Positions 14,116 to 41,524 of a stretch of DNA of 64,000 bases are shown in pieces (position 1 is the first letter of the stretch; each line of letters starts with the position of its first letter). Below the pieces are notes generated by a model, which was given only the letters and a program-made list of their open reading frames with translations, made no database searches and was not told where the DNA came from. The position numbers and the translations under genes were made by a program. This DNA is from Octopus vulgaris (taxonomy: Eukaryota). The DNA lies in contig OX597835.1 of assembly GCA_951406725.2 (NCBI GenBank), positions 10,974,001 to 11,038,000 on the forward strand, given 5' to 3'.

Positions 14116-14789
14116 TATATATATATATATATATATATTTCTGCAAATGCACAGTTAGTGCTGTATACATATTTATCACATGTATATCTACATCTATTCT
14201 ATCCATATTCACACCCACATTTCATATCTAATTTTACCATGTTGCAAGTATGTTAGGTACATCTGTACATTACATTTTTCATAACTTCCTTGCACACATT
14301 TCATAAATATTACATCTGCACATCACACTTTACCTCTTACAGCACACATTTCACATATCTTGCACCTGTATAATACACTTTACACATCACTTTACACATC
14401 GTTAATCTTTTACTCATTTCGGTCTTGAGACTGCGGCCTAGCTGGAGCACTGCCCTGAAGGGTTTGGTCAAACGAGCTGACCCCGGTATTCATTTATAAA
14501 GCTGGCACTTAGTCTTTTGGTCTCTATTTGGTGAACCACTAAGTTAAGGGGACATAATCCAACTGGCACCAGATATCAAGTTGGTGGTGGGGAACAAACA
14601 TAGATACACACACACACACACACACACATACATTGTTTGATGTAAGAATTTTATAACATTTCGAGAGAACCGCAAGCATGGCTGTGTGGTAAGAAGCTTG
14701 CTTCCCAACCACAAGGTTCTGGGTTCAGTCTAAACCAGGACTGCCATGTTATGTTGGCAAATGATCTTTGCTCTAAATTTTATATATAT

Positions 14790-15082
14790 AAAAGCCGTTC
14801 GATTCACTTCAACATTTAAGTTTAATTTGTCAAAATATTTTCGTCGCTTTAAGACCGCGACCTGTTCACTGACAAAAATCCTTGCTGCATAGATTTTTGT
14901 CAGTGAACAGGTCGCGGTCTTAAAGCGACGAAAATATTTTGACAAATTAAACTTAAATGTTGGAGTGAATCGAACGGCTTTTGTGTGTTTCTTAAATGGC
15001 TTACAAACACCTTCCACGCTGCAATTGTTTTCGTTTCAGCACACGATCTCAGATCAAATCACTTGCTATGCAAGTACATCTC

Positions 15083-15083
<1 letters not shown>
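14790..15083. mobile_element. Penelope-like terminal fragment with fold-back and hammerhead-like motif (G3:C8 variant)
   Basis: 91-bp inverted arms 14790-14880 / 14892-14982, flanked by (TA)n. A second single-arm copy lies at ~41330-41476. Confidence 0.6.
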
Positions 15084-15116
<33 letters not shown>

Positions 15117-40937: not shown

Positions 40938-41134
40938 TGCACAAAGTAATAAACTCTCAGAGGCACACATATGTCAGCATAAGTATACATAAACAGACAT
41001 GTATATGTACAAATGTATATATATATATATATATATATATAACATACATAAATATATGTATGTATACAGCGTGCGGATGGTATTTGTTTGCATGATAACA
41101 CTCCCAGAAAAGAATAAAACCTGTCGCGTATATG

Positions 41135-41175
<41 letters not shown>

Positions 41176-41180
41176 GATGA

Positions 41181-41264
<84 letters not shown>

Positions 41265-41475
41265 TCATCATCATCATCATCATCATCGTTTATATATATA
41301 TATATATATACATACATATACGCGACAGAGATGCAGCACGGACTTTGTCAGTGAACAGGTCGCGGATTTTAGCGACGAAAATATTTTGACAAATTAAACT
41401 TAAATGTTGAAGTGAATCGAACGGCTTTTGTGTGTTTCTTAAATGGCTTATAAACACCTTCCACGCTGCAATTGT

Positions 41476-41524
<49 letters not shown>

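Follow-up and report, generated by a model that had tools for sequence, protein, structure and literature searches.

Minimal hammerhead ribozymes have been described in the pseudo-LTRs (pLTRs) of Penelope-like elements (PLEs) by Cervera and De la Pena (2014, PMC4209133). These motifs are of type I, with one additional nucleotide separating position 9 from 10.1, a G10.1-C11.1 pair, a palindromic stem III and a common U17, and they cleave poorly in vitro. The elements are found mostly as solo truncated copies and as opposite-strand pairs 100-700 bp apart. Natural U3:A8 cores were reported by Perreault et al. (2011, PMC3088659) and in the PLEs of Cercyon (PMC4209133). In addition, a C3G/G8C double mutation engineered into the Anolis Poseidon PAc hammerhead led to partial rescue of cleavage (PMC11167929; PMC8495972). 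In the Anolis element, reverse transcription has two internal start sites, AT-rich DNA is nicked on both strands, and uncut RNA serves as the insertion template in vitro (PMC11167929). An inverted partner copy and a one-sided tail have also been described for PLEs (PMC8557442). General background is given in PMC6765202 and bioRxiv 10.64898/2026.07.22.740005.

The locus analysed here lies in a stretch of 64,000 nucleotides, hereafter called the window. We are fairly confident that it represents a head-to-head stub of a PLE, termed family A, and that its motif is a pLTR hammerhead with a flipped 3:8 pair, likely to be a slow dimer cutter. Similar to the PLE hammerheads of PMC4209133, the family A motif is of type I with the extra nucleotide, G10.1-C11.1, the palindromic stem III, U17 and the pLTR position, and family A also occurs as opposite-strand pairs at comparable distances and as mostly solo truncated copies. 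However, the core covariation reported in PMC4209133 is U3-A8, whereas family A has G3:C8. A G at position 3 was found in none of the 56 rows of Fig. S3 of that paper (53 C, 3 U) and in none of the 34 rows of File S2 of PMC8557442, all of which are C3:G8. The U3:A8 cores (PMC3088659, PMC4209133) and family A share a natural compensatory exchange of the 3:8 pair, but U3:A8 (PMC3088659) is two transitions away from C3:G8, whereas G3:C8 is two transversions away and places a pyrimidine at the general-acid position. The engineered PAc mutant (PMC11167929) has the identical core swap; there it served as a laboratory control, whereas in family A it is the fixed natural state of thousands of copies. 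No natural G3:C8 core was found in the literature searched, although the survey by Lünse et al. and supplements beyond that search may contain one. In the parts of the sources covered, searches for a G3:C8 core led only to engineered cases (PMC3884650, PMC11167929, PMC8495972) or to general papers (PMC3088659, PMC10761166), and the covered text of PMC6155905 and PMC10085705 gave no term match for such a pair. Measured against these parts, minimal hammerheads of PLEs, U3:A8 as a natural core and rescue by an engineered C3G/G8C are already in print, and the core variant of family A is new.

Table 1. Positions of the described features, in window coordinates.
Feature	Position	Strand	Basis or remark
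Inverted tail-less partner copy of the pLTR end	14790..14891	-	sequence comparison
Mirror minimal hammerhead; G3 at 14869; predicted cut 14833/14832	14826..14876	-	
Direct tailed pLTR stub, Penelope-like family A	14892..15083	+	sequence comparison
Type I minimal hammerhead	14896..14946	+	descriptor match and fold
Core with swapped G3:C8 tertiary pair (14903:14908)	14903..14909	+	
Predicted self-cleavage site, after U17	14939..14940	+	hammerhead numbering
Start codon and first ~29 codons of the RT-endonuclease ORF	14996..15083	+	ORF goes on in long copies, e.g. L091
~55-bp "tail" between the two fixed 3' ends of family A (~15028, ~15083)	15029..15083	+	
(TA)n target	15084..15114	.	11-bp T/TA stretch matches left flank 14779-14789
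Second copy, solo, tail-less, 8-nt loop II subfamily	41329..41476	+	common 5' start to short 3' end

In the plus-strand motif, stem I (14896-14902/14940-14946) has 7 bp and stem II (14911-14915/14925-14929) has 5 bp. The core at 14903-14909 reads G3-U-G-A-A-C8-A9, with an extra G at 14910, the GAAA box at 14930-14933 and U17 at 14939, and stem III is a 4-nt palindrome between positions 15.1 and 16.1. The type I three-way junction with stems I and II is present, as are U4-G5-A6, A9, G12-A13-A14, A15.1-U16.1 and H17; the literal CUGANGA, with C3 and G8, is absent and is replaced by G3 and C8. Stems I and II constitute the minimum free energy (MFE) fold (z -2.65; 3 of 200 shuffles equally stable), and the three sense motifs of the window yield z values of -2.4 to -2.8. 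A generic hammerhead descriptor run over the window matched only these three motifs, and the family A pattern with the core left open gave 3,102 genome matches against 0 in the reversed control, indicating that the motif is not a product of chance. A chance resemblance to a hammerhead in the untranslated region of a repeat is next to negligible as an explanation: the core does deviate from CUGANGA at two places and no hammerhead family appeared among the 150 matches listed of 327 in an Rfam scan, but canonical motifs stand at the same place in sister families and outgroups and share the stem II letters. An earlier interpretation of the same DNA, the sequence-only reading, had proposed the type I topology, which is borne out by descriptor, fold and alignment, as well as a mirror copy, which indeed lies on the minus strand (14876-14826). 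It had further held that CUGANGA searches would miss this family, in agreement with the G3 and C8 of the core. Screens for CUGANGA/UUGANAA therefore undercount hammerheads of this kind.

In the palindrome, the left arm (14790-14880) pairs with the right arm (14892-14982) along its whole length except for one of the 91 positions, as near-perfect as the sequence-only reading had stated, and this single mismatch (90 of 91 paired) falls outside the motif. The right, plus-strand arm extends to 15083, beyond the end at 14982 given in that reading. What looks like an 11-nt "spacer" (14881-14891) belongs to the minus-strand copy as its 5' leader; thus two copies are joined head to head. The minus copy starts at 14891, 21 nt upstream of its own G3, and ends at 14790, about 46 bp before the usual short 3' end of family A. 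The 11-bp T/TA match of the left flank could be a target-site duplication, a weak one because it lies inside a microsatellite.

This arrangement was compared with other insertions. Among 30 copies anchored upstream of the motif, 14 have their 3' ends at 15026-15036, 13 at 15081-15083 and 3 earlier, and the tail is present on one arm only of inverted pairs. Sites were sampled as the first 60 separate ones among 100 listed of 9,616 matches, all on one contig. Two copies were present at 35 of the 60 sites, and in all 35 they were inverted, one tailed and the other tail-less; the independent inverted pairs number 30, six of the 35 being one duplicated segment. None of the 35 two-copy sites contained head-to-tail direct tandem copies. 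Sites in unique DNA are flanked by 11-14 bp duplications. The six related sites (L183, L186, L218, L219, L221 and L222, contig C1) contain one fold-back stub with an identical junction, within a larger duplicated segment showing 92-98% identity over about 900 bp.

The idea of the sequence-only reading that the palindrome is a duplicated, dimer-like ribozyme did not hold. The two motifs lie on opposite strands, and a transcript over the locus, of either strand, is computed to fold as a 91-bp hairpin burying the motif. Because inverted tailed/tail-less pairs are routine in family A and the motif is buried, the palindrome is an insertion by-product and not a ribozyme dimer. The stub at 14790-15083 is most likely inert, a single one among thousands. 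It is extremely unlikely that the palindrome is a functional unit in itself, such as a self-propagating fold-back element, a MITE, a microRNA-like hairpin or a paired-ribozyme device. The near-perfect 91-bp hairpin would fit such a unit, and the best Rfam match was a microRNA-precursor model fitting the hairpin, rejected as sub-threshold (94.6 bits against a gathering score of 140). One junction is also common to six sampled loci, but these identical junctions sit in the one larger duplicated segment; the junctions otherwise vary by site, the arms end at the two RT start sites of the element and the sense motif is buried in the hairpin. A non-autonomous retrozyme, in which tandem hammerhead monomers spread via circular RNA, is very unlikely. 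The copies are short, abundant, non-coding and hammerhead-bearing, and an origin of retrozymes from PLE pLTRs has been proposed (bioRxiv 10.64898/2026.07.22.740005); however, all 35 two-copy sites are inverted with none head to tail, the copy ends lie away from the cleavage site, and the copies carry the ORF start and tail of an autonomous element.

Identification of that element relied on searches of the genome (2.8 Gb, 227 contigs). Exact patterns gave 4,054 matches for the GAAA box and 9,616 for the start codon, with 0 in each reversed control, and 747 for the sequence immediately upstream of the motif. The ORF pieces (RT, GIY-YIG) were reached by following inverted pairs 2-4 kb apart. In seven of seven long family A loci, an RT-linker-GIY-YIG ORF precedes the motif on the same strand by 0.98-1.04 kb; the Penelope ORF that had been suspected beside long copies was therefore found in all of them. 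The motif is thus placed in the pLTR about 1 kb past the ORF stop and 92 nt before the next start codon. In L091, two same-strand motifs 4.26 kb apart flank the ORF, and a 1.1-kb direct repeat on both sides of the ORF has a motif in each copy, with the start codon inside the repeat. In the upstream repeat the start codon follows the motif by 92 nt, and the stub of the window has the same start codon at 14996; the same-strand motif pair exists in L091, whereas the window locus is without one. The ORF starts inside the ribozyme in PAc, whereas it starts 92-93 nt after G3 in family A (PMC11167929).

The AlphaFold model of the 839-residue L090 frame has a pLDDT of 86.6, and its top four PDB matches are telomerase RT structures. 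RT motifs are present in the long copies, and the motif layout of the endonuclease agrees with Fig. S2 of PMC8557442. Pfam gave weak matches, RVT_1 in 6 and GIY-YIG in 5 of 35 aligned relatives, and PF01541 scored 20.9 bits, slightly under the 22.6 cut-off, in one of four fragments. No RT match was obtained by Pfam in the L090 or L096 proteins, and the PDB sequence search returned just two weak bacterial RT matches. Of 2,623 candidates, the 150 that were scored included no intact full-length family A frame; their longest open frame has 1,025 codons, upstream junk included. The carrier is an endonuclease-bearing (EN+) PLE. Similar to the Nematis, Neptune and Hydra clades (Craig et al. 2021, PMC8557442), it combines an RT, a CX3CX2C linker and a GIY-YIG domain with C-C-H-H residues. 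The family's linker resembles that of Nematis, being short as in the Nematis rows of Fig. S2 of PMC8557442, and the (TA)n targeting, the inverted partner and the tail are shared as well. However, the tail is about 55 bp long against 30-40 in the PLEs of PMC8557442, and about 128 residues separate RT motifs 3 and 4 (L090:3922-6438, residues 284-412) against about 57 in the Neptune row of Fig. S1. In this PLE with a C-terminal endonuclease, the stretch presumably represents an insertion of telomerase-like size, placed where the IFD lies. By motifs, the Naiad clade was rejected because the endonuclease of the element is C-terminal, and the Hydra clade because the C-C-H-H residues are present. Among the database relatives of the element protein, the closest with a name is labelled Octopus vulgaris, a hint at the animal group. 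The element protein has 136 database relatives, the motif-4 strings of its group are absent from the covered part of the PMC8557442 supplement, and the carrier group is possibly an unclassified PLE clade.

Two sister families were found. Family B is very young, with a protein 54% identical to that of family A and many open frames of 1,312 codons. Its motif, at the same place, has C3 and G8 and the first three stem II pairs of family A; it was found by eye, and a descriptor demanding A9 and a 4-bp stem I misses this family. A genome pattern left open at positions 3 and 8, with the usual family A stem excluded, gave 6,008 matches against 65 in the control. Among the 100 listed of these 6,008, 91 were C3:G8, 8 G3:C8, 1 G3/G8 and none C3/C8. 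The same pattern revealed older family B copies and a family C with fully canonical cores, whose only link to the element is that its flanking sequence contains a homologous ORF start.

In an alignment of 16 copies hand-chosen from families A, B and C, 92.8% of the cells pair, compared with at most 46% in slid controls. Seven of 13 pairs change on both sides, 3:8 included. The 3:8 pair is Watson-Crick in all 16 rows (11 C-G, 5 G-C), as in 99 of the 100 genome matches listed. U4-G5-A6, G10.1-C11.1, GAAA and the U16.1 pairing are unchanged across the three families, and the flanks are unalignable between them. Stem I of family C requires a bulge, and 8 of the 16 rows are unpaired at one column. 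The covariation amounts to few independent events, spread over three families and the outgroups. The outgroups came from 80 metagenome loci encoding relatives, in which 10 motifs were found, all on the sense strand, nine C3:G8 and one U3:A8; the control gave 1 match in 5 shuffled passes. Five of the contigs (L241:2426, L229:3237, L237:1683, L280:3511 and L304:329) have clean minimal hammerheads, one of them U3:A8, with a palindromic stem III of 2-4 nt, and some of the encoded relatives are distant, at 22-30% identity.

In a quick, midpoint-rooted tree, from which L304 was dropped as too short and in which four rows are under half filled, families A and B group apart from the metagenome relatives with an SH-aLRT of 99. 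Because family A groups with B, while the relatives carry C3:G8 (one U3:A8), G3:C8 is best read as derived in family A. Since the sister families and the metagenome relatives share the fold with compensatory stem changes, the family A motif is, as judged by this alignment, a true hammerhead homologue. The proposal that G3:C8 is a compensatory 3:8 pair is supported by this natural covariation against the sister families. The fixation of G3:C8 in a family with thousands of copies shows that the pair was preserved in evolution across two single-mutant states that are inactive. It independently supports both the 3:8 tertiary pair and selection acting on the geometry of PLE hammerheads.

The youngest copies of family B (L096:7178-7241, L137-L166) carry C in place of the invariant A9, together with a stem III that is not palindromic; in the newest ones U17 replaces C17, and the older copies keep A9. 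The family B ribozyme may be decaying while the element is highly active. The presence of canonical, G3:C8 and A9C sister families in one genome makes the role of the PLE hammerhead directly testable. At L143-L146 (G000:C1:3092118-3092845), family B and C stubs are nested head to head within 700 bp, which suggests that one sister element inserted into another or that templates were switched between them.

In family A, 96 of 100 copies listed have an intact core, and 93 of 100 have an intact segment from GAAA to U17. Of 55 copies spanning the motif, 49 have G3 and C8; the other six are scattered single copies, and none has C3:G8. Variants shared by three or more of these copies were found at 2 of 35 non-CpG ribozyme sites (one being a U-A to U-G change in stem I), at 9 of 20 leader and loop II sites (p 0.0009 versus ribozyme) and at 4 of 45 downstream spacer sites (p 0.69 versus ribozyme). 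No subfamily-level variant was found in the core, GAAA or stem III of the 55 copies. The expectation that core and stems are conserved relative to the flanks thus stood against the leader and loop II and failed against the downstream spacer. Because the spacer is kept as well as the ribozyme, the conservation signal among these copies is not, to judge from the variant counts, specific to the ribozyme. Four public runs with four organism labels (contigs, with lower depth there) contain the element and gave no core differences of at least 5%. Variant rates between pattern listings were rejected as a test of selection, as the anchors pick copies of different ages.

The 5' starts were determined for 95 copies anchored at the start codon on one contig. 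Of these, 47 start between -29 and -16 from G3 (42 of 85 with the duplicated segment collapsed). One copy starts at the first base after the predicted cut, at the inversion junction, and one runs farther upstream; no pile-up of 5' ends was seen at the predicted cut. In long copies, a TATA-box match lies 30 nt above the common 5' start. Seventeen of 33 short copies carry an additional G in front of the start, or 10 of 26 without the cases possibly templated by the inverted arm and one likely duplicate (p about 0.011 against 18% G). Such an extra G is the mark expected from cap copying. We infer a transcription start some 23 nt upstream of G3, with the TATA box 30 nt above it. The 5' boundary also resembles a 3' splice site, with a branch-point-like motif, a pyrimidine tract and CAG, and in Drosophila Penelope the end of an intron adjoins the hammerhead (PMC4209133). 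An intron reading is less likely, as no upstream exon is common to the short copies and the AG is retained in many of them; four runs listed no splice joint at this boundary, which carries no weight as these are assembled contigs. The inserted copies include sequence 5' of the cut, so they derive from uncut RNA, as in vitro for the Anolis element.

We propose an insertion cycle for family A. Transcription would begin at the pLTR promoter, and the element protein would nick both strands of AT-rich DNA. Reverse transcription would be primed at two internal sites early in the ORF, and the front of the capped, uncut RNA would be copied onto both nicks, resulting in one arm with the tail and an inverted one that lacks it. 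The two RT start sites, the tail, the nicking of both strands of AT-rich DNA and the uncut template are all shared with the PAc element (PMC11167929). In a full tandem transcript, the hammerheads of the 5' and 3' pLTRs would pair by means of their palindromic stem III, and slow cutting would follow after U17, probably aided by the element protein, as reported for the Anolis motif (PMC11167929). Such a cut would strip the cap and separate the 3' priming sites, which would give the ribozyme the role of a brake or of a processing step, and not that of a template maker. Because a working dimer needs two same-strand motifs, it would call for the arrangement of L091 and not for the palindrome.

We put cleavage by the family A motif at a little better than even. 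It is favoured because the double change kept the pair and the other catalytic letters stayed, and doubted because family B is active despite A9C and its non-palindromic stem III and because the computed dimer prefers an inactive fold. In the MFE structure of two motifs, stems I and II are swapped and the active fold does not form; at -0.2 kcal/mol, the 6-bp duplex of stem III is marginal. UUU is a weak triplet in minimal hammerheads. Catalysis may be dispensable in this clade, given the A9C and non-palindromic stem III of the youngest family B copies. A catalytically dead PLE hammerhead relic, kept as a structured 5' leader, a protein-binding element or a passenger, is nevertheless somewhat unlikely. 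The absence of 5' ends piled at the cut site, the A9C of the active sister family and the spacer conserved as well as the ribozyme are what a relic would predict, and hammerhead mutants leave insertion in vitro unimpaired (PMC11167929). In contrast, positions 3 and 8 both changed into a Watson-Crick pair and the other catalytic letters were kept while the flanks became unalignable, and neither the 55 copies nor the four runs revealed variation of the core at the levels given above. Returning to a motif that cuts slowly as a dimer, a tentative and somewhat doubtful extension is that family A is the first natural lineage fixed for G3:C8, still active, and forms a tuned-down series with its C3:G8, U3:A8 and A9C kin, in which the ribozyme, to judge from capped 5' starts and their lack at the cut, would be a brake or RNA-processing switch and not a template maker.

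The second copy in the window has its hammerhead at 41344-41393. The sequence-only reading had recognized this copy and its changed stem II loop correctly; with the first copy it shares 95.5% identity over 134 bp, loop II being different. The likeness of the two window copies says little about selection, because family A is young and conservation of the downstream spacer equals that of the ribozyme. The first catalytic-domain exon of an alpha carbonic anhydrase gene occupies 293-475 of the minus strand; the exons after it are found outside the window, about 14 and 19 kb past its start side. No upstream carbonic anhydrase exon was located, and a position of the stub inside a carbonic anhydrase intron is plausible. 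Directly upstream of the second copy, 41121-41328 is an imperfect inverted repeat with (TA)n, (ATC)n and short unique ends. Elsewhere in the genome, a transposase-like fragment at L002:1300-1500 directly adjoins a short copy at its 5' start, in opposite orientation; from a motif read by eye, we take it to resemble the C-terminus of a Tc1-type transposase. In addition, a canonical CUGACGA minimal hammerhead candidate lies at L093:6773 on the minus strand, in another repeat about 400 bp from a family A end.
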